From positions 15,754 to 79,753 of the forward strand of contig CAZEBA010000010.1 of the NCBI GenBank assembly GCA_964510615.1: a stretch of 64,000 nucleotides of DNA. Direction: 5' to 3'. Every line of letters starts with the position of its first letter. Within the stretch, counting starts at the first letter, position 1. A program made the translations under genes and the position numbers. The notes below the pieces were generated by a model. It did not search any database. It was not told where the DNA came from and saw only the letters and a list, made by a program, of their open reading frames with translations. The stretch comes from an uncultured Gemmatimonadota bacterium. Lineage in GTDB: Bacteria; Gemmatimonadota; Gemmatimonadetes; Palauibacterales; Palauibacteraceae. This document shows positions 35,402 to 54,667 of this stretch, piece by piece.

Positions 35402-35538
35402 ACCGACACGGCGAGGAGCGCTCGGTTGGCGGTTCGCAGCGTTCCCAAGGTGGTTTTCCCCATCGACCGGAGGGCGGGAGCCCGGGCGACGAAGAGGTTG
35501 TCCGGGCCGTCCTGGACGGCCGGGCGGAGCAGTATGCC

Positions 35539-36021: not shown

Positions 36022-36059
36022 GCGAGGGACGAGTGGAGTCCCCGGTTGCGAGGTAAGTC

Positions 36060-36686: not shown

Positions 36687-36703
36687 GGTCAGGAGCACGG
36701 GCG

Positions 36704-37435: not shown

Positions 37436-37613
37436 AGAGCGGCCATCCGGCCCGCGCTCCGGCACCGGCGGGCGGGTGATCGCGGCGAGCGCCGTTCATT
37501 GAGCCGCTCCGGCTCCCTCCCTATGTTCGCACGGATTCCGTGGCGCCGGATCGGGTGGCGGCGCCATCTCATCCCGGGCAAAGGCAGGCAGCACCCCTGG
37601 ACAAGGAGCGCGA

Positions 37614-38708: not shown

Positions 38709-38741
38709 GGCGGACACCCCACCGTAGGGCGGACACCCACC
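38705..38741. repeat. Two tandem copies (plus a degenerate third) of an ~18-bp direct repeat TAGGGCGGACACCC(C)ACCG
   Basis: Seen directly after the fabH stop, in the convergent gap before the BNR-protein gene. Confidence 0.55.
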
Positions 38742-38805
38742 GTCCGGGCGGGGCGACCGACGATGCTGGCGGGCGACGATGCCCGGCTCGAGGGCCGTGG
38801 GCGCC

Positions 38806-39891: not shown

Positions 39892-41180
39892 CCGGTCGTC
39901 TCCCCGGCACGAGCGGCAGGAGCCACGCTCGCCGCCGGGCCGAGCTCGATCGTCTCCGCCACCGCGCCTGGATCCAGGCGGTCGACGCCCTCGGGTACGA
40001 TGAGGAGCGCATCCGCCGTCGCCATCGAGGTCAGGATGCCCGAGCCCTGGGGGCCGGTGAGGTGGGCGGCCGGCAGGTCATCGACCGAGCCTTCCAGCCG
40101 AACGCGCAGGAAGTGGGTGAACTCGGCCGTCGAGTGGATCGGCTCGGCGACTCGAGCCGCCGATCTGGCTTCCAGTCGGGCGTGGCCGGCGAGCTTTCGA
40201 ACTCCCGGCCGGACGAACGCCTCGAACGTCACCATCGCCGAAACGGGGTTGCCGGGAAGGGCCCAGAACGGCTTGCCGGCCAGGAGGCCGAACGCGATCG
40301 GACTCCCGGGGCGGATCCTGGCACGCCAGAAAACGCGCTCGAGCCCGAGCTCCGCCAGCGCCTGCCTCACCCTGTCATGTTCGCCGACGCTCACGCCGGC
40401 TGTCGACACGATCCCGTCGCACGCCAGCCCGCGCCGGAGTCGCCTGACGATCTCGGCCTGATCGTCCCGCGCGATGCCGAGCGCAACGGGCTCCGCCCCG
40501 GCGGTACGCAACTGGGCGGCCAGGGCGTGGCTGTTCGAGTTCATGATCTTCCGGCCGGCAACGACCTCGTCGATCCCATCGAGGTCGGCGAGCTCGTCTC
40601 CGGTCGCCAGCACCGCGATCCGGGGCTGCCGTCCCACCAGGACACTCGCATGTCCGGCGAGTGCCAGCAGCCCGATCGCCGCGGGCGTGATCTCCTCTCC
40701 CTGGCGCAGGACGACGGCGCCGCCCCGAACGTCTTCGCCCCGTCGTCGAATGTTCCTCCGCGCGTCGGACGCGTCTCGGATCTCGACGAATCCGCCGCTT
40801 CCCCCGATCCCTCCGTCCGTGTGCTCGATCCGGATCACGCCCGTCGCTCCGGCAGGGACGGGTGCGCCGGTCATCACCCTGACGGCGGTGCCGGCTCGGA
40901 GCGGTCCCGCCGGGAACGAGCCGGCCGGCACGTCATCCGAGATGGGCAGGGTCACGGGATGGCCGGCCGACAGGTCCTGCAGGTCGTCGAAAAGGACGGC
41001 AAACCCGTCCATGGCGCTGTTGTCCCACGGAGGATGGTCGACCCGGCTGTGCACGTCCGCGGCGAGGGCGAGCCCGAGCGCGTCGTCGACCGGAAGCGAC
41101 CGGGAGCCCAGGAACTCGCAGCGCTCGAGCATCCGTCCGAGGGCGTCGCGGTAGGAGAGCCAGTCGGCTGCGTCGGCCAT
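39888..41180 (-). CDS. moeA: Molybdopterin molybdotransferase
   Basis: MoeA N-terminal, MoCF-binding (…VAVLATGDELADLDG…) and C-terminal domains; ATGA overlap with the downstream gene. Confidence 0.85.
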   Translation of the reverse strand: MADAADWLSYRDALGRMLERCEFLGSRSLPVDDALGLALAADVHSRVDHPPWDNSAMDGFAVLFDDLQDLSAGHPVTLPISDDVPAGSFPAGPLRAGTAVRVMTGAPVPAGATGVIRIEHTDGGIGGSGGFVEIRDASDARRNIRRRGEDVRGGAVVLRQGEEITPAAIGLLALAGHASVLVGRQPRIAVLATGDELADLDGIDEVVAGRKIMNSNSHALAAQLRTAGAEPVALGIARDDQAEIVRRLRRGLACDGIVSTAGVSVGEHDRVRQALAELGLERVFWRARIRPGSPIAFGLLAGKPFWALPGNPVSAMVTFEAFVRPGVRKLAGHARLEARSAARVAEPIHSTAEFTHFLRVRLEGSVDDLPAAHLTGPQGSGILTSMATADALLIVPEGVDRLDPGAVAETIELGPAASVAPAARAGETTG

Positions 41181-41181
41181 T

Positions 41182-42696
41182 TCAGTCGTCGTCCCGGCGA
41201 AAGAGCGCCAGCTGCTCGACCACGAGATCCTCTATCGCCCGGGCAGCCGAATCCGCGGCGTCGTAGTGATTCGCCAGGAAGGTGAAGATCAGGGTCTCAC
41301 CGTCACGGCTGTCGACGTAACCCGACAGGGCGCGCACGGCCTCCAGGGATCCGGTCTTCGCTCTCGCGTTGTTCTCGGCGGCCGTGCCGCGCATCCGCCA
41401 CTGGAGGGTCCCATCCACGCCGGCGATCGGTAGGGCGTCGAGGAAGATCTCGCGCGACGGGTGGGTCCACATCGCGGACAGGATGCGGTTGAGCGCGGCC
41501 GGCGTGAGCTGGTTGTAGCGGGAGAGGCCGGATCCATCGGCCAGGATCGCCGCCTCTGGCCGGACTCCCCAGCGGGAGAGCAGCCGGGCCTCCACCTCCA
41601 GCCCCGCCTCGGCAGACCCTTCGCCCGCGCCCTCTCGGCCCACCGTGCGGAGGATCGACTCGGCGATCTGGTTGTCGCTCGGCTTGAGGAATTCGCGCAG
41701 GATAAGTCCCAGAGAGTCGGAGCGGATCTCTCCGAGGAGCGAGCCCCGTGCCGGTGTCCTCTCATCCGGCTCGGCGCGCCTGAGCTGACCGCCGACGGTC
41801 ACGCCCGAGTCGGCCAACACGGCGCCGAAGTAGGAGAGGACGTAGAGCGTCGGATGGGCCGGCGCCAGCGAGAGCTGGAACGAGCGCCCGCGCGGCAGCC
41901 GCCCGACGATCCGCCGCTCGCTGCCCCCGGGAAGCGGCAGCACCTGGAGCTCGACCTTCGATCCGGTCGGGCCGGTTCGCACATCGACCAGGATGGGCAG
42001 AGCCGGTCCAGGCTCCATGTACCGCAGACGGACCGGCGCTCCCACCGCCGCTCCGGCCACCAGGGTCGCCGGCACGCGCCCCGGGCTGAGCTGCAGCCCG
42101 CTGACCCCGCCGGCGAAGCCGATGTGCAGCTCATCCCACATCCAGCCGCGCCCCCACGGAGCCTCCTCGAAGGCCCGATCGTCCCCGACGACGTCCCCGT
42201 CGATCTCCCGGATCCCGTGGAGCCTCAGCATGGGGATGATGCCCCGCAGCTCGTCGCGTGTCAGGCTCGGATCGCCACTGCCGATCAGCCACAGGTTGCC
42301 CTCGAGGCGTCCATCCGCCACGGGTCCGACCGCCACCACTCGGGTCGTCCAGCGGTAGGATGGTCCCAGCACCTGGAGTCCGACCACCGCCGTCGCCAGC
42401 TTCACGGTGCTGCCCGGCGTAAAGCGCTTTTCGGCCGTGCGTTCGTACAGGATCTCTCCGCTCCCGGCGGCCTGCACGATCAGGCCGACGTGCGCGCGCC
42501 GGAAGGTCGGCCGCGCCAGCAGGTCATCCAGCCGGCTGCCGAGTCGGAGAACGCTGGCCGATGCCACCGACTGCGCCGGATTGCGCTCTTCCACCGAGGT
42601 GGGCTGGGCCGCCAGGACGGAGGTGCCTCCGACGGCGATCGTCGCGGCGAAGCACGACGCACGGGCCAAACCGGAGCTCGGACCGAGCCGGGCCAT
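41182..42696 (-). CDS. dacB: D-alanyl-D-alanine carboxypeptidase/endopeptidase (PBP4, peptidase S13)
   Basis: ATG at 42696 (cat at 42694-42696). Signal peptide; SxxK GSTVKL, SDN (KPSDNQIAE), KTG (AKTGSL). The long upstream ORF extension is rejected. Confidence 0.8.
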   Translation of the reverse strand: MARLGPSSGLARASCFAATIAVGGTSVLAAQPTSVEERNPAQSVASASVLRLGSRLDDLLARPTFRRAHVGLIVQAAGSGEILYERTAEKRFTPGSTVKLATAVVGLQVLGPSYRWTTRVVAVGPVADGRLEGNLWLIGSGDPSLTRDELRGIIPMLRLHGIREIDGDVVGDDRAFEEAPWGRGWMWDELHIGFAGGVSGLQLSPGRVPATLVAGAAVGAPVRLRYMEPGPALPILVDVRTGPTGSKVELQVLPLPGGSERRIVGRLPRGRSFQLSLAPAHPTLYVLSYFGAVLADSGVTVGGQLRRAEPDERTPARGSLLGEIRSDSLGLILREFLKPSDNQIAESILRTVGREGAGEGSAEAGLEVEARLLSRWGVRPEAAILADGSGLSRYNQLTPAALNRILSAMWTHPSREIFLDALPIAGVDGTLQWRMRGTAAENNARAKTGSLEAVRALSGYVDSRDGETLIFTFLANHYDAADSAARAIEDLVVEQLALFRRDDD

Positions 42697-43382
42697 CAGT
42701 GCCCTTCCCGCACGGCGGCCCCGGCGGCCGCCAACACCGCCTCGGCGCGCTCCCGGTCCGCCCGCCGATTGACGTTGAGGAAAAGGATGGCCGGGTCTCC
42801 GTAGGTCGCGACCGACTCCAGCGGCAGGATGGAACGGGCCACGCCGGCGAGGGCCGATACCACCGTCCGCTCTCCACGCACCAGCGCCCGCTCGAACTCG
42901 CCCAGGCATTCGACGCCGTAGGCCGCGCACAGGGGCTCGAATCCCCGTGGCCCCTCGCTCGCCGGCAGGCACACGGCAGCTGGCGTGGCACCCGCCGCCA
43001 GCTCGCGCAGGAGCGCCGGGCTCAGGAACGGCATGTCGCAGGCGACGACGAGGGCAGCGCGACATCCCCGCTCGGCCGCCCAGGCCATCGCGGTGAAGAT
43101 CCCCCCCAGCACCCCGCAACCCGGTACCAGGTCGGAGCGCAGCTCGAGGCCGAGCGCCCCGTAACGCTCCCGGTCGTTCGCGACGATCACCACCTCCTCG
43201 ACAGCCTCCTTCAGCGCGCCGATGACATGGTCGACGATCCGCCGGTTCCCGAGGCGGGCCAGCGCCTTGTGGTCTCCGTAGCGGCGGTTCTCCCCTCCCG
43301 CCAGGACCACCCCGAGGACGCCGCTCTCGCCGAGCACGCCCTTCCCAAGCACGCGGCTCTCGCCGGTCGGCTCAGCGGGCAT
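42696..43382 (-). CDS. mobA: Molybdenum cofactor guanylyltransferase
   Basis: GVVLAGGENRRYG... NTP-transferase N-terminus; stop overlaps the dacB start (TGATG). Confidence 0.7.
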   Translation of the reverse strand: MPAEPTGESRVLGKGVLGESGVLGVVLAGGENRRYGDHKALARLGNRRIVDHVIGALKEAVEEVVIVANDRERYGALGLELRSDLVPGCGVLGGIFTAMAWAAERGCRAALVVACDMPFLSPALLRELAAGATPAAVCLPASEGPRGFEPLCAAYGVECLGEFERALVRGERTVVSALAGVARSILPLESVATYGDPAILFLNVNRRADRERAEAVLAAAGAAVREGH

Positions 43383-44112
43383 CGTCTCCCCCCGGCTCGT
43401 AGACGAACGGTGAGCCCCGCAGCGAGCGACCGATGAGCCAGAGGCCCGCCCGGGAGGCGACCTGGCGAGCGAGCGACGTGGGGACGGAGAGGGTGGCGAT
43501 GCCTCCGAGCCCGGCCCGCCACGCCTTGACGGCGATCTCGGCCGACACCCTTCCCGTGATCAGCGCCACGACGTCGTCCAGCGGTATCTCCGCCAGCGCC
43601 GCCGCGCCGATGAGCTTGTCCAGCAGGTTGTGCCGCCCGACATCCTCCGTCACGTGCACGACCCCGGTGTCGCAGAGCAGGGCCCCGGAGTGCACGCCTC
43701 CGCCCGCGGCACGCAGCGGGCAACCCTGAAACATCTCCTGAAAGGCGGCTCGCAGGTTGCCGGAGTCGATGAGCCGGCGTGGGTCGGGGATCGCCTTCGC
43801 CGGTACCGCCGGAATCCGGTCGGCCGCGAACCCGGCCTCGCCCGGTCCGGCGGAGAGCGAACCCGGCCCCGTGGCCGCGCCCGCCGCCTCGCCCGTGGCC
43901 GTCCGGACCCGAACGAACCCTTCACGCCGGCGGACCTCCAACAGCAGCACGTCGTGGCGATCGCGGATGCGGCCGGTCCCGATCAACCAACCGCAGGCGA
44001 GGGCATCCAGGTCGGCCGGCGTGCAGAGCCAGGTGCAGGCCCGGCGCCCGTTCAGCTCGAGCCAGACCGGTGCCTCGGCCGGCGAGGGGAGATCTGCAGT
44101 CGTCACGAGCAC
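43372..44112 (-). CDS. fdhD: Formate dehydrogenase accessory sulfurtransferase FdhD
   Basis: Signature VHVTEDVGRHNLLDKLIGAAAL (GRHN..DK). Confidence 0.8.
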   Translation of the reverse strand: MLVTTADLPSPAEAPVWLELNGRRACTWLCTPADLDALACGWLIGTGRIRDRHDVLLLEVRRREGFVRVRTATGEAAGAATGPGSLSAGPGEAGFAADRIPAVPAKAIPDPRRLIDSGNLRAAFQEMFQGCPLRAAGGGVHSGALLCDTGVVHVTEDVGRHNLLDKLIGAAALAEIPLDDVVALITGRVSAEIAVKAWRAGLGGIATLSVPTSLARQVASRAGLWLIGRSLRGSPFVYEPGGDDAR

Positions 44113-44170: not shown

Positions 44171-44883
44171 TCAGGGGTAGTACCAGAAAGTGACGCTCAG
44201 CTCGAGGTTGTTCGTCCATTCGCTCTCGCTCGGGGCGGCGCCACCGCTATCGATGATGATCTCCAGGACCTCGGGGAGGAAGAACCCCTCGGGTGCCGTG
44301 AGACGCCAGATGTGGTCCCGGGCCTCGAAGCTCAACCCCACGGAACGGGAGATCAGCCATTCGAAGCCGGCGGCGGCGAGGAAGTCCGGAGCGCTTCCCA
44401 TCTCGTAGATGAAGTCCTGCAGCTCCAACTCGTCCACCACCGAGCTGACCTCCTCGCTCAGAGCGAAGACCCCGCCGCCGCCGAACACCAGGTAGGGCTG
44501 GATTCCATGCCAGGTACGGGAACCGGTGAAGGTGAACTGGACGGCGGCCTCCGCCAGTAGCCAGCTGGAGCTGACCGTGTCCACGATCGCAGGGCCGCCG
44601 GCGGCGTACGGATTCACGATGTGTCGTTTGGAGCGCCCGTAGGTCGTGCTGATCTCGAAGCTGAGCGGGTTGCTCACGCGAATTCGGAAGCGACCAGCCC
44701 CCGTAAAGGTGGAGCCGGGGCCGAGGTCCAGGCTGCCGGTGTGAGTGAGGACGTAGCCCGGCGAGACGCCGAAGCGAAGTCCCTTCTCGATCCACCGGTA
44801 CGGCGTGTCGATCGTCGGCTGCTGCGCTGTCAGAGCCGCGGTCGTGCCGACGAGCAGCCATGGCAGGATGAAGGCGACTCGCA
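44171..44883 (-). CDS. Putative outer-membrane beta-barrel protein
   Basis: Start at internal ATG (MRVAFILPWLLVGTTAALTAQ signal peptide); alternating amphipathic strands; C-terminal ...SVTFWYYP. Coordinates +/-1. Confidence 0.5.
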
Positions 44884-45047
44884 TCCCGACGTGCGCCGGA
44901 GCGCCGCGTTGGCCTGTTTTCAACCAGGTGCCTTTCAGAATCGGCCGCCGGCCGTGGCGGCGCGAGGGTCGCACGGTCGATAGTATACGTGAAGATACGC
45001 GCGGTTCTTGCGCTTCTTATTGTCGAGACCACAGCAGGTTCCGGGAG

Positions 45048-46142
45048 ATGAATACTCCAGCGGTGCGAGCCGGGCCAGCGCGTCGGCGCACGGGATCGCT
45101 CCGTTGTCGGCCGCGTTTCCCCGGCCGGGCGGCTCCGGTCCTGATGGTTCTGGCGGGGGTGGCATCCCCCTGGGCCGGGCCGTCGCTGCACGCGCAGCCG
45201 GCGAGCGTGACGTCGACCGCCAACTTTCTCCAGACTGCGAGTGGCCGGCGTCTGGGCGTGCTCCGTCCAGGTGCCACCGTGCAGCGAACGGGGAACGTCT
45301 CCGGCAGCTGGAGCGAAGTCGTCCTGGAGGGGTGGATCTGGACGGGCTCGGTCGTGCGTACGAATCGTGACGGCTTCGACCTGTCGGTCTCGGTCGCAGG
45401 GGGAGAGAACTTCCGCGATGCCCCGAGCACCGACGGCATGGTCCAGGCCCGCCTGCTCCGCGGGTTCCTTCTCGAGCGGCTCGGGGAATCGGGTCGGTGG
45501 ACCCGTGCGCGGCGTACCGGGTGGGTGTCGACGGCGGCGCTGTCGGAGATCGTGGCCGGCGACCAGGGAGAGCGGCCGAGTCCCACAGCGGAATCCGCCG
45601 CCAAGGCCCCCGCGACCGTGGCTCCTGGAACGACCGGCGACGAGCGGCTGGTGGTCGCCGGCCGCTCGGCGCGACTCTACCTGTCGCCCGATGGGGACAC
45701 CATCGGGGTGGTGCGGCCGGGCGTCGATCTGTCGGTCGTCGCACGCGATGGGGCGTGGGCCCGGGTGCGCCTGAACGGCTGGGTTCGGGTCGCGGACCTC
45801 CTGCCCGCGGATTCGGCGGGCGGCGGGACCGCTGTCTCGGCCGAGGACCTGCGAGCCAATCCGGATGAGTTTCGCGGTCGTCAGGTTCGCTGGAGCGTCC
45901 AGTTCGTCTCGCTGGAACGAGCGGAGGCCGTGCGCACGGACTTCTACGAGGGCGAGCCGTTCATCCTTGCCCGGGCGCCGGATCCCGCGCACGGCTTCGT
46001 CTATCTCGCTGTCCCTCCCGAGCTTCTGTCGGCGGCCGAGGAGCTGAAGCCGCTCGAGATGATCGAGGTCCTGGCGCGGGTTCGAACGGGTCGTTCGGCC
46101 ATCATGGGCGCGCCGGTCCTCGATCTGCTGGCTTTCTATTAG
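45048..46142 (+). CDS. Hypothetical secreted protein with SH3b-like repeats
   Basis: ATG at 45048; signal peptide APVLMVLAGVASPWAGPSLHAQ; repeated ...W(S/A)xV...GWI/VR.. segments typical of bacterial SH3-like domains. Confidence 0.45.
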   Translation: MNTPAVRAGPARRRTGSLRCRPRFPGRAAPVLMVLAGVASPWAGPSLHAQPASVTSTANFLQTASGRRLGVLRPGATVQRTGNVSGSWSEVVLEGWIWTGSVVRTNRDGFDLSVSVAGGENFRDAPSTDGMVQARLLRGFLLERLGESGRWTRARRTGWVSTAALSEIVAGDQGERPSPTAESAAKAPATVAPGTTGDERLVVAGRSARLYLSPDGDTIGVVRPGVDLSVVARDGAWARVRLNGWVRVADLLPADSAGGGTAVSAEDLRANPDEFRGRQVRWSVQFVSLERAEAVRTDFYEGEPFILARAPDPAHGFVYLAVPPELLSAAEELKPLEMIEVLARVRTGRSAIMGAPVLDLLAFY

Positions 46143-46267: not shown

Positions 46268-48187
46268 ATGGCGAAGTGGCGACTGCCTGAGTTGCTCAGC
46301 AGCCTCTCCGCCCGGGTCCCCTCATCCGAGGCGGCGGCGGGCAAGGACGAGCCGGAAGTTGCGGCGGCGGAGGAGTCGAGCCGTTTCGCCGAGCGACCGG
46401 TGGACCGGTCGGTGCTCTGGCTGCCCGGTGGTTGGGGGGAGCACGACAGCTCCCGACCGTACCCCTACGAGCTCTTCGTCGAGCAGGATCTGCTCCGGGC
46501 CGTCGCGGCTCATGCGCAGGAGGAGGTCGACGGGAGCTATGGCCTTCTGACCGGCCGCCTGCTCACCTGCCGGCGTACCCGAATCCCGTTCGTCCACGTC
46601 GAGGCTGCCCATCGCTCGGAAAACCCGCTTCCGACCGACGAAGACGTCGCGAGCTTTCGGGAGTTCTTTTGGTCGGTGCGCGAGAAGGCCGGTCGGCGCG
46701 GGCGAGTGCTGGTCGGCTGGTATCATACCCACTCCCTGCTTGGCCTCCAGCTCTCCGAGCGCGACCGGCAGCTCCACGTGACCCACTTCCACGACGACTG
46801 GTGCTGCGCGCTCGTCGTGGTGACCCGCCACGGAAGAGCCGAAGGCGGCTTCTTTCAACGTGACCGCGGCGACATCCTGTTTCGCCGATCCACTCGTCCG
46901 TTCCACGAGGTCGTCAACCAGAAGGTCCGGGCAGGCGGCGGCCCGTACGTGACGACCGTCTCGTGGGAGAATTACTGGACTCACGAGCCCGTACTGTTCG
47001 CGAGAAAGCCGGGTGAGCCGGAATCCCGCGGCGGCCGGTGGTACTGGCGCCGACGCGATCCGTCCAGCCGGACGACCACGCACCTGCCGGGGCTGGGTTC
47101 CGGGACCATCGCAAGCGAGAAACTGGACGGCCTTCGCGATCAACCTGCCCCACCCGACGAGGCCACGAGCCGGAAGCCGGAGAAGCCGAGCTACCAGCCG
47201 GCGCTGGGTCGTCCGCGGCGGGCCGAGGACGACGCCGCCTTACCGGAACAGGCCAGGCACCAGGGTCCGCCGTCGGCCGACGCGTGGGCCCAGTGGGAGC
47301 AGGGACGGGAAGTCCGCCGAGCTCGCACAGAGAAGCGACTGAAGCCGGACAGGCAGCAGGCGGCCGCCGACGCGACTCAGACTGAGGCCGATGCGGATCG
47401 GCGTGCGCGGGCGAGGCTGGCCGCGCGGGCGGCGGCGGAAGCGGCAGCTCGGGCGGCGGCGGAGGCGCTGGGCATCGAGAGCGAGACCGATGCGGTCACT
47501 GCGGAGGCCGTGTCGCGGGCAGAGAGGGAGGCGGCCGCCCTGGCATCGAGGCGGCGCCCTCCGCCCGAAGTCGAGCCCGCGCACGAGGTGTCGGAAGCCG
47601 TCGAGGCGGATGTTGCGGGCACGGCTGTCTCGGCGACCGAGGTGGACACGACCCGGGCGGCCGAGGTGGCGGCGGAAGTCGAGGTGGCGGAAGTCGAGGT
47701 GGCGGAAGTCGAGGTGGCGGATGGGTCCGAGGTGGCGGACGAGTCCGAGGCACCGACCGAGGTAGAGGCAGTCCCCGAAGCCGAAGGCGTGCCAGAGAGC
47801 CAGATCGCAGCTGCCGAGTCTCCGCCGGGCGAGACGGTTCGGAGGCCGTCCGGTGACCAGGAGACTCGCGCGGCGCAGCTCGAGCTGAAGGAGCCGACGG
47901 AGCCTACGGAGGTCGCCCGCGTGCCTGCCGAGCCGGACGGCGTTGCGGAGGCCGAGGTAGCCGAAGTCGAGTCTCGCGCCGAGCCGGCTCCGGCCGGGAA
48001 GCTCGCGATTCCGGGGCGCAAAGCAGACGTTGAAGCCGCCGACAAGCGGTCACCGAGCGAAGCCGACTTCGTGATGCCGCCGATGATCATTCCTGATCCT
48101 CCTTCGCGCGTGTCGTCACGGAAGTACGCGCTTTTGATCGGAATTGCGGTGCCGATTGCCGCCCTGCTGTGGTGGCTCTTGGTTTGA
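46268..48187 (+). CDS. JAMM/MPN+ metalloprotease-domain protein with long Ala/Glu-rich repetitive region and C-terminal TM anchor
   Basis: JAMM motif EVDGSYGLLTG...VGWYHTHSLLGLQLSERD (E...HxHx7SxxD). Tandem VAEVE repeats from a 15-bp DNA repeat near 47690-47740. C-terminal YALLIGIAVPIAALLWWLLV. Confidence 0.6.
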   Translation: MAKWRLPELLSSLSARVPSSEAAAGKDEPEVAAAEESSRFAERPVDRSVLWLPGGWGEHDSSRPYPYELFVEQDLLRAVAAHAQEEVDGSYGLLTGRLLTCRRTRIPFVHVEAAHRSENPLPTDEDVASFREFFWSVREKAGRRGRVLVGWYHTHSLLGLQLSERDRQLHVTHFHDDWCCALVVVTRHGRAEGGFFQRDRGDILFRRSTRPFHEVVNQKVRAGGGPYVTTVSWENYWTHEPVLFARKPGEPESRGGRWYWRRRDPSSRTTTHLPGLGSGTIASEKLDGLRDQPAPPDEATSRKPEKPSYQPALGRPRRAEDDAALPEQARHQGPPSADAWAQWEQGREVRRARTEKRLKPDRQQAAADATQTEADADRRARARLAARAAAEAAARAAAEALGIESETDAVTAEAVSRAEREAAALASRRRPPPEVEPAHEVSEAVEADVAGTAVSATEVDTTRAAEVAAEVEVAEVEVAEVEVADGSEVADESEAPTEVEAVPEAEGVPESQIAAAESPPGETVRRPSGDQETRAAQLELKEPTEPTEVARVPAEPDGVAEAEVAEVESRAEPAPAGKLAIPGRKADVEAADKRSPSEADFVMPPMIIPDPPSRVSSRKYALLIGIAVPIAALLWWLLV

Positions 48188-48355
48188 TCCACTGAGCGGA
48201 TTCGTCGACGCCCGTCGGGGCTTTGTCCGTGTACCAACCGGCCGCGATGCGATGACCTGCTCCCCCACCTGTTGCTGGAATTCCGTTCCCGAAGGGACCC
48301 GCGAACACGGCGGTGCTTCTGTTGCCGATACTCTTCCCCCCAAAGCCAGGGCGCC

Positions 48356-49384
48356 ATGACGAATCAGATCCGGAGCGTGGATAGGAGAGGGGACGCTGCG
48401 CGACCACAGGTTTCCGTTGTGGTTCCCATGCACAACGAGGCGGCCAACATACCGATCTTCTACGAGCGGTGCTCCGGCTCGCTCGAGCAGCTGGCGGTCG
48501 ATTGGGAGATGATCTGCATCAACGATGGGAGCACGGACGGCACGGTCGAGTGCGTCCTCCGACTACGAGAATCCGATTCTCGCGTGAAGCTCGTCGATCT
48601 GACGAAAAACTTCGGCAAGGAAGTGGCGCTGGCGGCCGGCCTCGATCACGCCCTCGGCGATGCCGTGATCGAGATCGACGCAGACCTCGAGCATCCGCCC
48701 GAAGTGATCGAGGACATGTTGCGAGTCTGGGGCGACGGTGCGGAGATAGTCTTCGCCGTCCGTCGGAACCGGCGTTCCGAAACGAGGACGAAGCGTTTCC
48801 TGGCAAACAGCTTTTATCGGGTGTTTGGAAAGCTGACGAGAATGGAAAAGGCCGAGGAGCTGAGCGATTTCTGCCTCCTGGATCGGAAGGCAGTCGATGC
48901 CCTCCGCCAGGTTCGCGAGCGCAGCCGGTTTACGAAGGGTCTGGTGGCTTGGATGGGCTATCGCCGCGGACTCGTCTATTACGACCTCGGAGCGAGGCAG
49001 GCGGGAGGTTCCAATTGGAGCTACTGGCGGCTTTGGAATCACGCGATCGATGGCATCACCGCGTTTAGCAGTGCCCCCCTCAAGTCCTGGACGTACGTGG
49101 GTACCTCGATCGCCGTGCTCTGCCTGTTTTACGCGGCTTTTATTGTCATGCGTACACTCATTCTGGGGATCGCGGTACCGGGATACGCCTCGTTGATGGT
49201 GGGTGTTCTCTTCATGGGCGGGGTGCAGTTGATCAGCCTCGGCGTGCTTGGAGAGTACATGAGCCGAGTCTACAGCGAGGTCAAGCAACGGCCTCTCTAC
49301 CTGGTCCGAGAGCGTTACGGGATCGCTGTGAGCGGCGAAGAGTCCCAGGAGCGGCAGCCGGTTGCGAGCCCCCGCATCCATTGA
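48356..49384 (+). CDS. Family-2 glycosyltransferase (polyprenol-phosphate sugar transferase, GtrB/DPM1/ArnC-like) with C-terminal TM helices
   Basis: ATG at 48356. VSVVVPMHNEAANI...CINDGSTDGT...; DxD-type motif EIDADLEHPP; two C-terminal TM helices. Confidence 0.8.
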   Translation: MTNQIRSVDRRGDAARPQVSVVVPMHNEAANIPIFYERCSGSLEQLAVDWEMICINDGSTDGTVECVLRLRESDSRVKLVDLTKNFGKEVALAAGLDHALGDAVIEIDADLEHPPEVIEDMLRVWGDGAEIVFAVRRNRRSETRTKRFLANSFYRVFGKLTRMEKAEELSDFCLLDRKAVDALRQVRERSRFTKGLVAWMGYRRGLVYYDLGARQAGGSNWSYWRLWNHAIDGITAFSSAPLKSWTYVGTSIAVLCLFYAAFIVMRTLILGIAVPGYASLMVGVLFMGGVQLISLGVLGEYMSRVYSEVKQRPLYLVRERYGIAVSGEESQERQPVASPRIH

Positions 49385-49411
49385 TCCAGTAGGCAGCCCG
49401 GCAACCGCGCC

Positions 49412-50302
49412 ATGCGTCTGGACTTTCAAGCGGATGATTTCGGCGCCACGTCAACCGTAACGTCCAACATCGCAGCAGCTTGGCGGGAGGGCGTACTGAC
49501 TGGCTGTAGCGTCCTGGCGAACGGTGAGGCACTGGAAGAGGCGGCTCGGGTGGCCAAGTCTTCACCGGCCGGATATCCTCGCATTGCAGTACATCTCAAT
49601 CTGTCGGAGGGAGCTCCGTTGCTCGATCCGGCGGAGGTGTCCGCCCTGGTGGACTCTGCGGGCCGGTTTCACCTTGGGTTCCTCGGTCTTTGGGGGCTTT
49701 GGTTCCGATCGCGTCGTCGCGAGAGACAGGCCCTTCTCCGCCAGGTAGAAGACGAATGGCGAGCACAGATTCAGCGGGTGTGCGACGTCTTCTCGCCATG
49801 TCCGGTGATCGGCATCGACGGACACATCCACGTCCACATGCTGCCATTCCTCTTTCCTATCGCCGCCGAGCTGGCACGGGTTTTCAACATCTCGGAGATC
49901 CGCGTCTCGCACGAGGTGCTGGACCTCAGATACGCGCGCACGCTCCACCCTGGACTGGCCGGGAACCTCGTCAAGCATCTCCTCCTGGCTTTCCTCTCGC
50001 GCCAGGCGCGGCGAACGGCGCAAGATGCCGGACTGGGCGGCTCAGAGAGAATCGCCGGCATCCTGCATGTGGGGCGCTTGGAGGTAGACACGCTCCAGGC
50101 GGCTATCGGCGCAGCGCGTCGCCGGCACGTGAGCTGGCTGGAGATCGTTTGCCACCCGGGGCGCGCCGCGCCAAGCGAGGCGGGGCGATGGAAGCGACAA
50201 CCATGGCTTCTACGCTTTTACCTGGATCAGCGACGAGATGTGGAGCGGGATGCGCTGATCCGCTTGCGCTCCCTTCTCGACGAGGAAGCACGCGACCGAT
50301 GA
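49412..50302 (+). CDS. YdjC/ChbG/HpnK-family carbohydrate deacetylase
   Basis: N-terminal MRLDFQADDFGATSTVTSNI (ADDFG signature) and conserved His cluster IDGHIHVHMLP. Confidence 0.75.
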   Translation: MRLDFQADDFGATSTVTSNIAAAWREGVLTGCSVLANGEALEEAARVAKSSPAGYPRIAVHLNLSEGAPLLDPAEVSALVDSAGRFHLGFLGLWGLWFRSRRRERQALLRQVEDEWRAQIQRVCDVFSPCPVIGIDGHIHVHMLPFLFPIAAELARVFNISEIRVSHEVLDLRYARTLHPGLAGNLVKHLLLAFLSRQARRTAQDAGLGGSERIAGILHVGRLEVDTLQAAIGAARRRHVSWLEIVCHPGRAAPSEAGRWKRQPWLLRFYLDQRRDVERDALIRLRSLLDEEARDR

Positions 50303-50559
50303 GCCGCACCCGCCATCTTGGGTGCTGCCAGCCGCCGGCACGCGGTCAACCAATGCTTGCTTGCACCGGACAGTGTGCTCAAACTCACAACTCCGCAACG
50401 CCGTTCGGCTGGCGAAAAAGCTGGAACGGCGGCTGCGGGAGCTCCGGCAAACTTGACTGGTTGCTCAGGACCCAGTGCTATGTGGTCGACAGGTAGATCA
50501 GCTCGGAGGTGGACCAAGCATCATGACGGTCCCTCTGCCGCCGCGACCGGGCTCCCAGC

Positions 50560-51828
50560 TTGACTCTCGCCAGGCTTCCCCACATACGATGGCCGCAAGT
50601 GCTATCTGTCCTGTTGGTGCTGATCCTCCTGTTTTTCTACGCTGTTCCGTTCTCGCGCCCCCCGGGAGGCTGGCCGCTAGGTGAGCTGCTGGTCAACTAT
50701 CAGGGAGGCTTTGTTCGCCGAGGTTTGTTGGGCGAAGTCGTTTTTCGTATCTCGCTGGCTCTAGACCTTTCTCCGCTCTTCCTGCTCCGCTGGCTGTTTG
50801 TTGCCCTGTCGGTCGTCAACATCCTCGTGTTTGTTTCTCTAAGCGCCGTCGAAGAGCGGCTGCTGAAGCGGGCCACCCTCCTTCTCGCCCCCGTATTGCT
50901 GCTATTCCCAGTGTATGACTTGGCCGCCTACGGTCGGAAGGACCTCATCACCACTGCGCTCCTCGGCGTCCATGCATTGATTGCGCAGCAAACGTTCCGT
51001 CGCCGATTGAGCTTCGGCACGTACGGTACATTACTCGCAGCTCTCATCGCTCCCCTCTTGATGGTGCAAATCCTGACTCACGACGTACAGATCTTTTTCA
51101 TTCCCTTCCACCTCGCCATCACTGTTGCCGTGCTGCAAGATTGTGATGACGCCACCCCACGTCGGGTGCTCTGGCCGTATGTGCCGGTAGCCGCTGTTTC
51201 GGTTCTACCCGTCCTGTTCAACGGTACGAAGGAGACGGCGATTGCAGTCTGCAATTCATGGCATGCCCTGATCGATCAGTTCGGGTATTGTCGTGTCAAC
51301 AGCGATAGCTTCAGCGACCTGGTGCACAGCGGAATGAAGGCGCTGGGGTGGGATTTGCGGAAGCCGATCGGGTACACTCTTCGAACCGTTCGGAATCGCG
51401 AGGCGGCAAGCCTGTTCTTCGTCGCAGCAGCGCTCAGTCTGGTTCCGTATTTCATTTTCTACAGGATGTCCGATGTTTGCCGTGCCGGCGCACCGGTTCC
51501 AGATCGGCTACAGCGGCTGTTGCGGTTCTCCCTGCTGGCGCCGCTGGCGCTGTTCATCATCGGCGGATGGGACTTCGGGAGGTGGCTGCACCTGATTACC
51601 AGTGGCCTGTTCGCGTTGACGTACTGCAGACCGCGACTCGTGCAGAGCCGCGTGCGGTTCGACTCGGTGCTGGAGGGAGCCGGATTCCGGGGGCTGCTTC
51701 CGTACCTACTATTGATCGGTTTGTACGTCGGTTTCTGGTACGTCCCGCATTGCTGCGAGCCGAGCAGCCTGCAGGGTGGGATGTTCGAGGCCGCCAGTGC
51801 CTCATTCCGACTTCTGTTCGGTGGTTAG
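50560..51828 (+). CDS. Hypothetical polytopic membrane protein
   Basis: 422 aa with ~10 predicted TM segments; lower local GC than the flanks (by eye). Confidence 0.5.
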   Translation: MTLARLPHIRWPQVLSVLLVLILLFFYAVPFSRPPGGWPLGELLVNYQGGFVRRGLLGEVVFRISLALDLSPLFLLRWLFVALSVVNILVFVSLSAVEERLLKRATLLLAPVLLLFPVYDLAAYGRKDLITTALLGVHALIAQQTFRRRLSFGTYGTLLAALIAPLLMVQILTHDVQIFFIPFHLAITVAVLQDCDDATPRRVLWPYVPVAAVSVLPVLFNGTKETAIAVCNSWHALIDQFGYCRVNSDSFSDLVHSGMKALGWDLRKPIGYTLRTVRNREAASLFFVAAALSLVPYFIFYRMSDVCRAGAPVPDRLQRLLRFSLLAPLALFIIGGWDFGRWLHLITSGLFALTYCRPRLVQSRVRFDSVLEGAGFRGLLPYLLLIGLYVGFWYVPHCCEPSSLQGGMFEAASASFRLLFGG

Positions 51829-53321
51829 TTGGGTACACAGGCGTCGAGTCGATAGATCAAGTAATAGGCGCTCGCCGCGATCCGATCGCACTCGGCCTCG
51901 ACGAATGCCAGAAGGTCGTCGTGGCGGCGCTTGAACTCTTCGAGGTCCGTGACGACCAGGTAGTCGGCCTCCGAGTCGAGGGCGGCGAACCGAAGGAACA
52001 GGTCCGGCGGACCCGCGTCAGGTTGCGGATCACGACCTCGGGACGACGCGCGCCGCCAGAAGTCCCCGGCCAGCTCGCCGTAGTATGAGAGCGGCACGCC
52101 GTAATAGGGGGAGATGAACACGACGTCCGTGCTGTGATCTACGATCTCTCCGATTTCTCGAGCCAGTTCTGGTGATTCGATCGTGCCGCCCCTCTCGCGA
52201 TGCTCCCGGACTTCGCCGAGGACGGCACGCAGCCCTATGCCCGAGGTAGCTACGAGAAGGGCCACGACGATTCGGCGATCTACTCGGTCCGCAAGGTAGG
52301 TGGCGATGACTTCCAGCACGGGGGTCGTGGCAATGCCAATCGCCGGGAGTAGCACCAGGTGGTAGTAACCAGCGAACCGAACGTGATAGGCGAACACCGC
52401 CAGGAACATGGCGTAGCCGGCGATGAGGCCGTATACGAGTTCCCTCGGCTGCTCCTTCCGAAGCCCGGGCAAACCGATAAGGGCGAGCAGGCAGGGCACG
52501 ACACCGAGAGCGTGTATGGCGGTCGAGGGCCACGACCGCCAGAAGCCGCTCGTAAGCAGGAGGTGGGGGAAGAAGGTCTTACTCGCCTTTTGGGCGAGCA
52601 TGTCGGAAAGGAAGATGCCGTACACGTAGTACGTCGTCCCGACGGCGAGGGCGGTCGATAGGAAAAGCGCGGCGTCGGCATAGCGGGGCGTGCGGGTCCG
52701 TAGTGCCCGCGCCAGCCAGAGGGCGAGGAAAGCGGCCAAGAGGCCGAAAAGGCACAGGGGCTTCACCAGTATGGCGACGCCTGACACGAAGGCGGCGAGC
52801 AACAGGCGCGCCGTCGTGGGCTGCTCGTGATGGCGAAGGATCAGGAGCAAACCGGCCATGAACACCAACATCATGAGGGGCTCGGGAACGAAGACGGCAC
52901 TGATCTCGATGCCCAGCGGCAAGAACAGGTAATAGGCGGTCACCGCCAAGGCGACGCCTGCCCGCGCGAAGCGGCGCAGGATCTGAAAGAATAGGATGCC
53001 CCCGACGAGCCAGAAGCCGGTCGACAGCGTGCTCGGAATCCTGAGTTGCTCCCGTCCGACAAGCCCGTAGACTCGGGCGACCAGCGCCTCGAAGATCGGA
53101 GGTTCCAAGACATCCTGGCGGGCCACGGCCGCCGCCGCTGCTCGAGTCCGCCACTGCGGCACGGGACGGTCGGCGAAGAAATAGCTCCTGGCGATCAATG
53201 CCGAGCGATACTGCCGCTCGGCGATGATGGTGGGCCGTTCGATGTCCAACCTCGCGCCGAGCGCCGCCGCGAGGAGCGCAACGAGAAAGATGGTCGAGAT
53301 CTTCTCCGACGAGACTGGCAT
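51825..53321 (-). CDS. GT-C fold glycosyltransferase, family 39/ArnT-like (PMT_2)
   Basis: Multi-TM N-terminal region with ArnT/PMT-like loops, plus a soluble C-terminal domain. Start taken at MPVSSEKISTIFLV. Confidence 0.6.
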   Translation of the reverse strand: MPVSSEKISTIFLVALLAAALGARLDIERPTIIAERQYRSALIARSYFFADRPVPQWRTRAAAAAVARQDVLEPPIFEALVARVYGLVGREQLRIPSTLSTGFWLVGGILFFQILRRFARAGVALAVTAYYLFLPLGIEISAVFVPEPLMMLVFMAGLLLILRHHEQPTTARLLLAAFVSGVAILVKPLCLFGLLAAFLALWLARALRTRTPRYADAALFLSTALAVGTTYYVYGIFLSDMLAQKASKTFFPHLLLTSGFWRSWPSTAIHALGVVPCLLALIGLPGLRKEQPRELVYGLIAGYAMFLAVFAYHVRFAGYYHLVLLPAIGIATTPVLEVIATYLADRVDRRIVVALLVATSGIGLRAVLGEVREHRERGGTIESPELAREIGEIVDHSTDVVFISPYYGVPLSYYGELAGDFWRRASSRGRDPQPDAGPPDLFLRFAALDSEADYLVVTDLEEFKRRHDDLLAFVEAECDRIAASAYYLIYRLDACVPN

Positions 53322-53401
53322 GGCAGAATGGTACAACATGAGGGTCGGCCGCGCGTGCGCCGCCGGCGCGTTGCGGCACCATGGGTACGTCCAGCGACCG
53401 G

Positions 53402-54667
53402 ATGAAGAGTCTGCGGCCGTCTAACGCGGCGGTTCTGATCGTCGCAACGGTCCTCTCTCTCGCCCTGGTCGAGCTCACCGCCCGGCTGCTCGTGGAGCCA
53501 TCCGATGTGTCGGCAGGGCGACTGCTCGGAGTGGAGCTTCCTCCGCTCGAGGCATTTGCGAAATCGCCGACGGCCTGGGACACGTCGGGAGAGAGAGCCG
53601 AGCGACTCGTCGATGACGGTCCGCTCACGTACGGCGATCTATACGGTATCCAGCGGGAGGATTCGCTGCTCGGATATACGGCTCTCGAGGGTACGCGCTC
53701 CCGAAATGGCTGGTGGGAGTCCAACGAGATCGGCGCGCGAGCCAGGGTCTCTTCAGCCCACGCCGAGCGAGGCCGTCTCCTCGTGTTTGGCGAGTCGTTC
53801 GCCCAGGGAAGCCGCGTCAAGCAGGAGGATGCCTGGGCCTCGGTACTGGACTCCCTGTGCGCCGAGTACGAGGTCATGAACTTCGGCGTTGACGGCTACA
53901 GCATGGGGCAGGCATACCTTCGCTACCGTGTCGTGGCATCGCGCATCGAACACGAGGCTGTACTTCTGATGTTCACCCCGAGCGTGGATCTGTGGCGCGA
54001 TCTGAATTCTCTCAGAGCCCTTCGTGGATGGATAGGCGTCCCGCTGGTGCCGCGCTTCGTGCTCGACGGCGAGGGCCTCAGGGTAGCAGAAAGGCCCTAC
54101 CCGAACCTGGCGACCGCCCTCGAAGCGAACCAGGGGGCGATCTCGCCGCCCCTGCACGCTTATCTACTTCGATACGACCGGTTCTATTGTGTACCGTTGT
54201 ACAAGGTGCCGCCCGTGGTGGGTGACTTCATGCTCTACAAGATCGCGGCGGCTGGATGGTGTCGCATTCGACTGATCCGCTTGAAGTCGGAGCTTCTCGA
54301 GCCGAAGGGGGAAGCCGTGCGGCTCGTGCAGGAGATCTTCGCGGCTGCGCGTCGCGAGGCAGAAGAGAACGGGGCGCGCTTCGTCCTGGCGATCCTGCCG
54401 GCACCGAACGACTTGAGTACTCGTGTGGCCAGCAAAGCGTACGCCAAGCAGCTCGACGAACTGGGGCAGCTCTTCTGCTCGGAGACTCCATGTATCGACC
54501 TGACCGAGGATCTGTCCTCGCTCCCGCCCGGGCAGCTTGATTTCGGTGCCGACGGGACGCACTACGGCCCCCTGGCGAATCGGCGGATCGCGGAGAGCAT
54601 AGCCGCGAGGTTCGGCTGTCACCAAGCGATTGGCGGGCGGCCAGCGCATGAGCCGGTCGAGGAGTGA
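53402..54667 (+). CDS. Membrane-anchored SGNH/GDSL-like hydrolase (putative)
   Basis: N-terminal signal anchor VLIVATVLSLALVEL; GDS-like block LLVFGESFAQG; distal DGTHY (DxxH-like). Tentative family assignment. Confidence 0.45.
   Translation: MKSLRPSNAAVLIVATVLSLALVELTARLLVEPSDVSAGRLLGVELPPLEAFAKSPTAWDTSGERAERLVDDGPLTYGDLYGIQREDSLLGYTALEGTRSRNGWWESNEIGARARVSSAHAERGRLLVFGESFAQGSRVKQEDAWASVLDSLCAEYEVMNFGVDGYSMGQAYLRYRVVASRIEHEAVLLMFTPSVDLWRDLNSLRALRGWIGVPLVPRFVLDGEGLRVAERPYPNLATALEANQGAISPPLHAYLLRYDRFYCVPLYKVPPVVGDFMLYKIAAAGWCRIRLIRLKSELLEPKGEAVRLVQEIFAAARREAEENGARFVLAILPAPNDLSTRVASKAYAKQLDELGQLFCSETPCIDLTEDLSSLPPGQLDFGADGTHYGPLANRRIAESIAARFGCHQAIGGRPAHEPVEE

Follow-up and report, generated by a model that had tools for sequence, protein, structure and literature searches.

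A tail-anchored JAMM/MPN protein of the Gemmatimonadota and the membrane-anchored family to which it belongs

The gene at positions 46268..48187 (+ strand) of the window, the 64-kb stretch of DNA which was analysed here as a whole, encodes a tail-anchored MPN/JAMM protein of 639 aa. It stands at the tail-anchored end of a sizeable family whose members as a rule combine an MPN domain, a long low-complexity linker and a transmembrane (TM) helix. The protein represents neither a new fold nor a new chemistry. With regard to its function, we infer that it is best read as an orphan, tail-anchored offshoot of a family of membrane-anchored Ubl peptidases, and that it would serve as a membrane-localised zinc (iso)peptidase or as a zinc-binding scaffold.

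The open reading frame, taken from the ORF list, starts with ATG and has a codon-position GC of 0.76/0.54/0.80, like the adjoining genes. The N-terminal start MAKWRLPE is kept in the orthologues, and the segment MAKWRLPELLSSLS (aa 1-14, 46268..46309, +) is conserved in six aligned orthologues; the structure models show a short helix there (6-14 or 8-13) at low pLDDT. Orthologues with an identical full-length architecture were found (L004, L005, L006 and P0076), and the ORF is a genuine, vertically inherited and conserved protein of the Gemmatimonadota. A promoter and terminator scan revealed no sigma-70-like promoter in the region 44.9-48.5 kb; the only terminator-like matches near the gene fall in the part that encodes its TM helix (48156-48176) and are no more than chance would give.

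The sequence-only reading had assigned the N-terminal part to the JAMM metalloproteases. Profile search and structure prediction agree on a JAMM/MPN fold, and neither led to a different one. The MPN core (aa 68-197, 46469..46858, +) shows the MPN alpha/beta fold in the structure models with a pLDDT mostly >85. It is part of an extended MPN domain (aa 41-236, 46388..46975, +), delimited by the match to profile A2, which covers the family members across positions ~4-209, by invariant residues and by AF2 strands (48-51, 212-221 and 225-233). This domain possesses a family-specific N-terminal strand, 'RSVLWxP' (aa 47-53), and is closed by a C-terminal hairpin with 'WxNY' (aa 233-236); R47, S48, W51, P53, W233, N235 and Y236 are invariant in 14 homologues.

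The window protein by itself does not reach the Pfam gathering thresholds (JAB 16.8 bits, cut-off 22.5; Prok-JAB 15.2 bits, cut-off 25, E=0.021), and the NCBIfam scan gave no match. A single-sequence search of the PDB sequences yielded only matches with E~1, to Rpn11 around the motif, so that a family profile was needed; this aligned 134 residues with PDB Rpn11 (E=2.8e-5). Furthermore, hhalign of the family to the Pfam-positive JAB group gave 99.0% with E=3.1e-18, and the family members P0109, P0085 and P0106 pass the Pfam JAB cut-off. The N-domain of the window protein has a JAMM/MPN fold, and at the profile level it is homologous to genuine JAMM proteins.

The metal-binding motif H153-T-H155-SLLGLQL-S163-ER-D166 (46724..46765, +) aligns, as H153-T-H155-x7-S163-x2-D166, to the 'GWYHSHPGFGCWLSSVD' motif of Rpn11. 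H153, H155, S163 and D166 are invariant in 14 homologues and in the aligned orthologues, so that the proposed motif residues are indeed conserved, and a column tabulation showed the His/His/Asp ligands retained in 202 of 227 family domains. Zinc is presumably bound by the MPN domain of the window protein.

The JAMM signature was earlier called complete, which does not hold for the catalytic Glu. Its position was assigned to D88-G89 (46529..46534, +) by HMMER alignment to Rpn11, by the columns of the 227 domains and by hhalign versus the canonical group. The canonical column is occupied by Gly89, and Asp88 lies one residue upstream, at -4 from G92, whereas the canonical position is -3; at the beginning of beta2, no catalytic Glu was found in the register E-x-x-G-h-h-x-G. 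Most close relatives have Glu at the position of Asp88, and an acidic residue beside the canonical column is kept throughout the window clade. One possible reading would be a one-residue insertion between the ancestral Glu and G92. Among the 202 ligand-intact relatives, 70 have no acid at -3 or -4, often Gln instead, and catalysis may therefore not be the conserved function of the family. A further acidic residue is the invariant Glu of F212-H-E214 ([FW]xE; 46901..46909, +), which was recognised in the family alignment. Its column contains Glu in 192/193 ungapped family sequences and aligns with the invariant 'WRE' of the operon-type group in hhalign. Because the alignment places E214 in the Ins-2-equivalent region, it is more likely to act as a binding determinant than as a relocated catalytic residue.

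The linker of the window protein comprises 372 aa. The long acidic, repetitive spacer described from the sequence is present and conserved in the full-length orthologues, but it is not merely flexible, as it contains a confident helix and four conserved motifs. Residues 251-616 consist of 20% A, 14% E, 10% R, 10% P and 8% V, with a net charge of -28. The linker begins with a Pro/Arg/Ser-rich disordered part (aa 237-335, 46976..47272, +; pLDDT <50), in which the orthologue alignment revealed a conserved island, Y-x-x-A-h-G-R-P (aa ~309-316). It is followed by a conserved, long alpha-helical segment (aa 339-400 and 408-428, 47282..47551, +; AF2 pLDDT 81-88 and ~75), a confident helix of 62+21 residues within ~90 residues, with the conserved motifs AWxxW..VRR and AARAAAEAAARAAAEALGIxSExDA. 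In orthologues, inserted repeats of the AEAEAKARAEEEAR type add as much as ~300 aa at this segment.

The third part is an acidic, Ala/Glu/Val/Pro-rich region (aa 437-612, 47576..48103, +), disordered according to its composition and a pLDDT <50; the net charge of aa 421-600 is -31. It contains a 15-bp tandem repeat, GGCGGAAGTCGAGGT, detected by TRF and visible in the sequence (x4.4, 47671..47739, +), which encodes (AEVEV)n. This array shows 92% matches and consists of three perfect copies with diverged flanking copies; the repeat reported earlier as a perfect fourfold VAEVE is real, but 'perfect x4' was slightly generous. Orthologue L006 carries the same 15-bp unit x3.6-5.3 at the corresponding site. 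Directly before the membrane, the conserved juxtamembrane motif FVMPPMIIPDPPSR (aa 601-614, 48068..48109, +) aligns with MVVPPLVMPDPLPR in L004-L006 and resembles 'VTLVLPDNRAER', which precedes the TM helix of the bitopic clade.

Hydropathy, AF2 and the orthologues all confirm the single C-terminal TM helix that had been proposed (48113..48184, +), which is preceded by R/K (SSRKY). The Kyte-Doolittle maximum is 2.53 at aa 621, the sole strongly hydrophobic segment comprises aa 620-639 of 639, and AF2 places a helix at 616-638 (pLDDT ~88-90). The helix is kept in L004-L006 and P0076, and the orthologues end 0-5 residues past it. Having no signal peptide and a single TM helix at its very end, the window protein is tail-anchored. 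The positive-inside rule and the missing signal peptide suggest a cytoplasmic (N-in) topology of the MPN domain. No remnant of the periplasmic domain of the relatives was found downstream of the gene in any frame, and tblastn with six C-terminal domains detected nothing in the window or the orthologous loci.

The membrane-anchored extended-MPN family was defined in this analysis; its extended MPN domain occurs in 126 cluster representatives (E<=1e-30). Against the family profile, whose underlying alignment includes the window sequence, the window protein (P0075) reaches 323 bits, and it shows all hallmarks of the family: the RxxxWxP strand, the MPN core, [FW]xE, WxNY, the low-complexity linker and the TM helix. 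In the 108 representatives whose domain is complete and followed further on by a TM helix, linker length has a median of 128 aa and a maximum of 514 aa, which puts the 372 aa of the window protein within the top ~5%. Most members carry a ~120-aa, two-Cys helical periplasmic domain ('GRIxC...HFDASGCPRP') after the TM helix, whereas the window clade stops at the membrane; only 4/108 representatives are tail-anchored. Tail-anchored variants recur in the operon-linked relatives P0031 and P0041. The examples P0008, P0083, P0084 and P0106 carry no annotation more specific than 'proteasome lid subunit RPN8/RPN11' or 'hypothetical'. The architecture had been regarded as undescribed. No description of it, or of a membrane-anchored bacterial JAMM protein, was found in the literature searched, which does not prove its absence, but the architecture is not unique, as the 126 representatives show. 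The window protein shares with this uncharacterised family the domain, the long low-complexity cytoplasmic linker and the single TM helix.

Acidobacteriota relatives with the canonical Glu are encoded in clusters of ThiF(E1), YukD-like Ubl, E2-like, JAB, FHA and VWA genes. Because canonical-Glu relatives sit in such E1/Ubl/E2-like clusters, the ancestral role would most likely have been to process or remove ubiquitin-like tags at the membrane. The family is built of an MPN domain, a low-complexity linker, a TM helix and a small two-Cys periplasmic domain, and the window protein is a derived branch of it, in which the periplasmic domain, the operon partners and the canonical Glu register have been lost (Asp88 at -4). 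Its extended MPN domain, with the His-His-Asp(+Ser) zinc site intact, would lie in the cytoplasm, tethered by the TM helix to the inner face of the membrane. The tether of ~370 residues, predicted to be first disordered, then a long helix and finally acidic and disordered, evolves through tandem-repeat expansion and may set the reach of a putative zinc-dependent (iso)peptidase towards a cytoplasmic or membrane-proximal substrate.

The best explanation, to which we give about even chances, is that the tethered MPN protein has remained a zinc-dependent (iso)peptidase at the membrane. Against it stand Gly89 in the Glu column with Asp at -4 rather than Glu, and scores below the Pfam JAB and Prok-JAB cut-offs. 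The missing partners and the missing defence-JAB match also speak against it. As had been stated for the adjacent genes, no Ubl or E1 partner was found: the scanned ORFs of the 64-kb window contain no gene for E1, E2, Ubl or MoeB, and Pfam scans detected no ThiF, UQ_con, YukD, ThiS or MoaD among ~48 ORFs. The scanned ORFs also include no coding-like, GG-ending small ORF; a MoaD/ThiS-like candidate ending in GG (53992-54225) was rejected because of its non-coding codon-position GC (GC3 0.47).

Rpn8, CSN6, Abraxas and EMC8/9 are MPN proteins which function as binding platforms. Tentatively, the window protein might likewise be a pseudo-enzyme with a structural zinc site and without hydrolysis, that is, a membrane-anchored platform with linker motifs and a helix recruiting partners. 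However, MPN- proteins such as Rpn8 and CSN6 normally lack zinc ligands, and it is unusual for such proteins that the window clade and its sister clade show no variation at His, His, Ser or Asp. The acid adjoining the canonical column, kept across the whole window clade, likewise argues against a scaffold.

Directly upstream of the MPN gene, a putatively secreted SH3b-domain protein is encoded (45066..46142, +; Pfam SH3_3, E=1.2e-10; start codon uncertain), in which a hydrophobic N-terminal segment was read by eye. It is rather improbable that the MPN protein is the cytoplasmic arm of an envelope signalling or quality-control module with this protein, with the MPN domain as the output and, in the sister clades, a periplasmic TPR/Big_1 protein as a further partner. 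Such a module would agree with the SH3b gene being directly upstream and co-oriented in 17/17 Gemmatimonadota loci examined, the two genes being just 10 bp apart in L001, and with the genes for an OMP beta-barrel and a PBP4-type DD-carboxypeptidase which flank it. The bitopic clade has a TPR/Big_1 gene within 12 bp after the MPN gene, and the window clade lacks both this gene and the periplasmic domain, a joint absence that also fits. However, synteny extends over the whole block PBP4-MobA-FdhD-OMP-SH3b-MPN, plainly unrelated genes among them, and the adjacency may be phylogenetic inertia. Moreover, no part of the window protein projects beyond the membrane to contact a periplasmic partner, and the Gemmatimonadales relatives P0123 and P0135 occur in a different context with neither SH3b nor Mo genes.

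Mo genes are abundant in the window (XdhC, ModA, ModBC, MoeA, MobA and FdhD, the last ending ~2 kb upstream). In addition, there is a precedent in HvJAMM1, which is reported to regulate MPT synthase via SAMP1 (PMC4443979). Nevertheless, a JAMM protein that processes MoaD/ThiS-type sulfur carriers for Mo-cofactor biosynthesis, like HvJAMM1 or Mec+, is very unlikely. The Mo genes are located on the opposite strand with the OMP and SH3b genes in between, the scanned ORFs of the window include no MoaD, ThiS or MoeB gene and no coding-like GG-ending small ORF, the Gemmatimonadales relatives have no Mo context, and membrane anchoring has no rationale in this pathway. Finally, long false ORFs arise in high-GC genomes and three overlapping ORFs >100 aa lie on other frames, but a spurious or shadow frame with a fortuitous HxHx7SxxD in this 70% GC genome is ruled out by conservation, since homologues of 60-77% identity hold the frame over ~2 kb up to the conserved C-terminal TM helix, the GC3 coding signature is present, the MPN fold is predicted confidently and the exact protein sequence is contained in a public collection.

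Compared to known systems, the identity to the JAMM/MPN+ isopeptidases (MEROPS M67, PF01398) Rpn11, CSN5 and BRCC36 and to the archaeal Rpn11 homologue of Caldiarchaeum is only 17-21%; unlike Rpn11, CSN5 and BRCC36, the window protein has Asp, shifted by one residue, in place of the catalytic Glu, is membrane-anchored and stands outside a lid-type complex. The metal motif is shared with Mec+/CysO and HvJAMM1/SAMP1 (Prok-JAB, PF14464), to which the Prok-JAB match is weak; Mec+ and HvJAMM1 are small, soluble and encoded with, or acting on, MoaD/ThiS-type proteins, and their Glu register differs. In contrast to CBASS Cap3, BilC and BubC of the Bil, Bub and CBASS systems (PMC11601596), the window protein lacks neighbouring genes for E1, E2 or Ubl and occurs in a housekeeping, syntenic chromosomal context instead of a defence island; these peptidases are soluble, whereas it has a ~370-aa linker and a TM anchor. 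E1/E2/Ubl adjacency, the trait of Bil, Bub/6E and CBASS Cap3, is found in its distant relatives. The PADLOC JAB/BilC defence models gave 0 matches to the window N-domain, and the reading as a defence-system JAB was rejected or given less weight; P0106 (2e-11) and P0060 (7.5e-10) match PADLOC JAB models.

Bacterial Ubl conjugation (Bil, Bub and CBASS Cap2/Cap3) is a young field, and to our knowledge all its characterised JAB peptidases are soluble. Speculatively, the extended-MPN/linker/TM proteins could be an undescribed membrane branch of bacterial Ubl signalling. In Acidobacteriota, they might be the peptidase of an E1/YukD-like Ubl/E2-like system wired to FHA, VWA and T6SS-like (TssK, TagJ and TssA-like) parts. 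In Gemmatimonadota, they might be a core, operon-independent membrane protein whose target would be either a Ubl from another locus, in trans, or, via a shifted or alternative acid (D/E at -4 or the invariant E214), membrane-proximal substrates of a new class.

The window gene leads to a sizeable family with a membrane-anchored JAMM domain, some members of which are encoded beside E1, YukD-type Ubl and E2-like genes. With its zinc ligands kept and the Glu displaced, the protein is a natural case for the limits of active-site drift in JAMM proteins, and the tether, fast-evolving by repeat expansion, is a case for linker length tuning the reach of a membrane-tethered enzyme. If Ubl conjugation by these systems occurs at the membrane, this would be a new setting for prokaryotic Ubl signalling.

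The MPN/JAMM gene (46268-48187, + strand) starts with ATG and encodes a protein of 639 amino acids. Its codon-position GC (0.76/0.54/0.80) is the same as that of the neighbouring genes in the window, the G+C content of which is about 69%, and the overlapping ORFs in other frames are ordinary high-GC shadows; a spurious ORF was excluded. The sequence-only reading had described this ORF, the metal motif H153-T-H155-SLLGLQL-S163-ER-D166 (HxHx7SxxD), an acidic region with a repeat and a C-terminal transmembrane (TM) helix, and all of these were found again.

With the single sequence, Pfam scores stayed below threshold (JAB 16.8 bits, cut-off 22.5; Prok-JAB 15.2 bits, cut-off 25), and an NCBIfam scan gave no match. 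Homologue searches yielded close Gemmatimonadota relatives (63-65% identity), a sister clade of proteins of about 425 aa (30-35% identity) and, with a profile, Pfam-positive JAB proteins. Since the profile of the N-terminal domain (A2) matches Rpn11 chains in the PDB (E=2.8e-5, ~134 residues) and hhalign against the alignment of the Pfam-positive relatives gave 99.0% probability (E=3.1e-18), a fold other than JAMM is not indicated. By its fold and its metal motif the protein belongs to the JAMM/MPN+ superfamily, from which it departs in two respects, the single-sequence Pfam cut-off and the register of the canonical Glu.

The motif residues are conserved among homologues, as the reading presupposed. 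H153, H155, S163 and D166 are invariant in an alignment of 14 sequences and also in six full-length or near-full-length orthologues. Among 227 related domains pooled from all searches, the H153 and H155 columns hold His in 215 and 209 domains, respectively, the S163 column Ser, Thr or Ala in 216, and the D166 column Asp in 218; all three of the His/His/Asp ligands are retained in 202. The canonical JAMM Glu lies in the pattern E-x-x-G-h-h-x-G. The respective region of the window protein is E85-E-V-D88-G89-S-Y-G92-L-L-T-G96, and HMMER and hhalign agree that G89 occupies the canonical Glu column (position -3, counted back from G92) and D88 the position before it. The "complete JAMM signature" was therefore an overstatement, and the catalytic site is questionable. 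At position -4, close relatives possess Glu, the window protein and the family representative P0076 Asp. Glu or Asp at -3 occurs in 83 of the 202 ligand-intact domains, an acid solely at -4 in 49, and no acid at either position in 70 (typically Q-G-x-L-G). One reading of these sequences is that a one-residue insertion may lie between an ancestral catalytic Glu and G92.

Glu214, in the motif [FW]-x-E, is another hallmark of the family: of 193 ungapped sequences, 192 have Glu here, and hhalign pairs the residue with the invariant 'WRE' found in the operon-type group. The alignment with Rpn11 suggests that it may lie in the Ins-2-equivalent segment. Within this motif (aa 212-214, 46901-46909), Glu214 is invariant family-wide, operon-type members included, and exceeds the canonical catalytic Glu in conservation.

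The MPN domain is followed by a long tether (aa 251-616: Ala 20%, Glu 14%, Arg 10%, Pro 10%, net charge -28; aa 421-600: net charge -31). Full-length orthologues from Gemmatimonadota MAGs in GTDB (L004, L005 and L006; N-domain identity 75-77%) show the same plan of MPN domain, E/A-rich region of ~380-400 aa and C-terminal TM helix, as does P0076. The spacer had been regarded as acidic and of low complexity; it is indeed long and E/A-rich, also in orthologues, but it is not featureless. The orthologue alignment revealed four conserved islands, namely Y-x-x-A-h-G-R-P (aa ~309-316), GPPxxxAWxxW..VRR (aa 333-352), AARAAAEAAARAAAEALGIxSExDA (aa 385-410) and the juxtamembrane hVhPPhhhPDPxxR (aa 601-614). 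In the full-length AF2 model, disordered stretches (aa 236-332 and 437-612) flank a predicted 62-residue helix (aa 339-400, pLDDT 81-88) and a second helix (aa 408-428). The VAEVE tandem repeat is real as a 15-bp unit (GGCGGAAGTCGAGGT, x4.4 at 47671-47739, 92% matches in TRF, coding for (AEVEV)n), but inspection showed only three perfect copies with diverged flanking copies. The unit recurs at the equivalent place in L006 (x3.6-5.3). Linker length is hypervariable; two loci (L008 and L009) insert ~300 aa of AEAEAKARAEEEAR-type repeats, in L009 as 84-bp units x5.7. Judging from these sequences, the tether evolves by repeat slippage.

The sole strongly hydrophobic segment is the extreme C-terminus (aa 620-639; TM helix at aa 616-638 in AF2, pLDDT ~88-90), with Arg/Lys just before it. 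The periplasmic domain of the relatives was sought downstream of the gene in all frames, and as no trace of it was detected, the tail anchor is genuine. The positive-inside residues, the lack of a signal peptide and the two-Cys domain beyond the TM helix of relatives point to an N-in topology.

An exhaustive profile search over 1.84 billion cluster representatives matched 3,823 proteins at E<=1e-3, 857 at E<=1e-10 and 126 at E<=1e-30. The top matches span almost the whole extended MPN domain, and one hit, P0075, has exactly the window protein's sequence and stems from an NCBI contig of 83.7 kb. Named members belong to Gemmatimonadota and Acidobacteriota. Typically, an N-terminal MPN domain is joined by a low-complexity linker to a single TM helix, beyond which lies a C-terminal two-Cys domain of ~120 aa ('GRIxC...HFDASGCPRP'). 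Several members (P0074, P0085, P0086, P0088, P0094, P0099 and P0106) have two extended MPN domains in tandem ahead of the TM helix, each with its HxH..D ligands preserved; the arrangement recalls MPN+/MPN- heterodimers in eukaryotic complexes, here within a single chain. Linker lengths were compared in the 108 representatives in which a complete domain is followed by a TM helix: the median is 128 aa (range 37-514), with at least 150 aa in 46 and at least 300 aa in 14. Only four of the 108 are tail-anchored. A long, acidic tether rich in Ala and Pro is a family trait; the window protein, whose linker has 372 aa, represents the upper tail of the lengths and has in addition lost the periplasmic domain. 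The architecture had been called undescribed, and no published account of a membrane-anchored bacterial JAMM was found in a literature search of incomplete coverage, but it is not unique, since MPN-linker-TM is family-wide.

For the function of the gene, we infer an enzyme at the membrane: there is about an even chance that the protein is a membrane-tethered zinc-dependent (iso)peptidase. The MPN domain would bind zinc, be held at the membrane and act on a cytoplasmic or membrane-proximal substrate, and the helix-plus-disordered tether would set its reach. The main rival, a zinc-binding but non-catalytic scaffold, gains from the Glu being displaced or absent in a third of the family; we consider it rather unlikely.

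The MPN gene lies in a conserved neighbourhood. In 17 of 17 Gemmatimonadota loci, the minus strand carries a PBP4-type peptidase S13, MobA (42696-43382 in the window), FdhD (43372-44112) and an OMP beta-barrel (44171-44974), and after the OMP gene the plus strand carries divergently a secreted SH3b-domain protein (45066-46142) and then the MPN gene. The long SH3b ORF begins at 44805 and overlaps the 5' end of the OMP ORF by ~170 bp, so its start is probably later, at ~45066. The SH3b and MPN genes are 10 bp apart in L001, a sister-clade locus, and 125 bp apart in the window. The MPN protein might be coupled to the SH3b/envelope genes, but the case is weakened by the lack of any part of the window protein on the periplasmic side.

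In the bitopic sister clade, which retains the periplasmic domain, the next gene, starting within 12 bp, encodes a 795-aa TPR/Big_1 protein (L001 9293-11680; L002 2264-4654; also L010, L015 and L016), and imuA-imuB-dnaE2 come after it. The window clade has neither this gene nor the periplasmic domain, and the joint loss suggests that the two interact in the periplasm. In L004 the MPN gene abuts imuA (236 bp from its stop). In the window the two are separated by a 7.9-kb block of 61% GC (48200-56000; genome ~70%), with a GT2 (48356-49384), YdjC (49412-50302), a 422-aa membrane protein, a PMT_2-like glycosyltransferase (51825-53339, - strand) and two further ORFs without family assignment. It is missing from the orthologous loci and is probably a laterally acquired glycosylation island. 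The mutagenesis cassette behind it (imuA 56093-56803, imuB 56713-58215, dnaE2 58023-61667; in all 56093-61667) is syntenic with L002, L004, L006, L010 and L015. Gemmatimonadales relatives of the Q-G clade (P0123 and P0135) have a different housekeeping context, with an aminotransferase on one side and, for P0123, dnaX-ybaB-recR on the other.

Among the ~48 window ORFs scanned with Pfam were housekeeping genes (ThyX, GyrA, Rho, ETF), a group of molybdenum genes and efflux genes, and no ThiF/MoeB, ThiS/MoaD or UBC was detected, in agreement with the earlier remark that no Ubl/E1 partner is adjacent. No coding-like GG-ending small ORF was found in the window either. A Moco/MoaD link is unlikely; MoaD, MoaE and MoeB are absent from the window. 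The ThyX (Thy1) gene (107-2374) is split by an intein that carries an HNH endonuclease domain (Thy1 1.5e-47, Intein_splicing 8e-10, HNH 5e-7). The molybdenum genes are concentrated at 28511-44112 and further comprise XdhC (28511-29566), a ModA-like SBP (30185-31180), a fused ModB-ModC-TOBE of 818 aa (32945-35401) and MoeA (39888-41180, - strand). The window clade is an orphan without nearby partners in a vertically inherited housekeeping neighbourhood. Defence-system JAB models did not match the protein, and because it has neither partner genes nor a profile match, it does not belong to the operon peptidases of Bil, Bub or CBASS.

Acidobacteriota members with the canonical Glu sit in clusters (L018 4254-13968; L021 2616-12531; L022 2041-11326; L024 4415-12808) in the order ThiF (E1), [YukD-like], UQ_con-like, JAB, FHA and VWA. 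The YukD-like beta-grasp protein after ThiF in L024 scores 45.5 bits, above the Pfam cut-off, and its L018 counterpart is without assignment; the UQ_con-like protein matches weakly (E 5e-5 to 1.5e-4). The JAB protein is membrane-anchored in P0106 and P0041, and P0036 and P0060, read by eye, have no obvious TM segment. L018 and L021 add TssK/VasE-like, ImpE and ImpA_N/VasJ proteins after FHA and VWA, and L018 has a Ser/Thr kinase, PP2C and FHA upstream. By gene content, the cluster resembles a ubiquitin-like conjugation system connected to T6SS-like components; no description of it was found in the literature searched. Because P0106, from such an E1/Ubl-type cluster, matches the window family profile across the whole extended domain (E=3e-41), the ancestral role of the MPN family was most plausibly to process or remove a ubiquitin-like protein at the membrane.

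Fold and chemistry were already known; new here is the family-wide membrane-anchored architecture, of which the window protein is a derived orphan. This architecture, together with the operon-linked relatives, is of interest to the field of bacterial ubiquitin-like systems.
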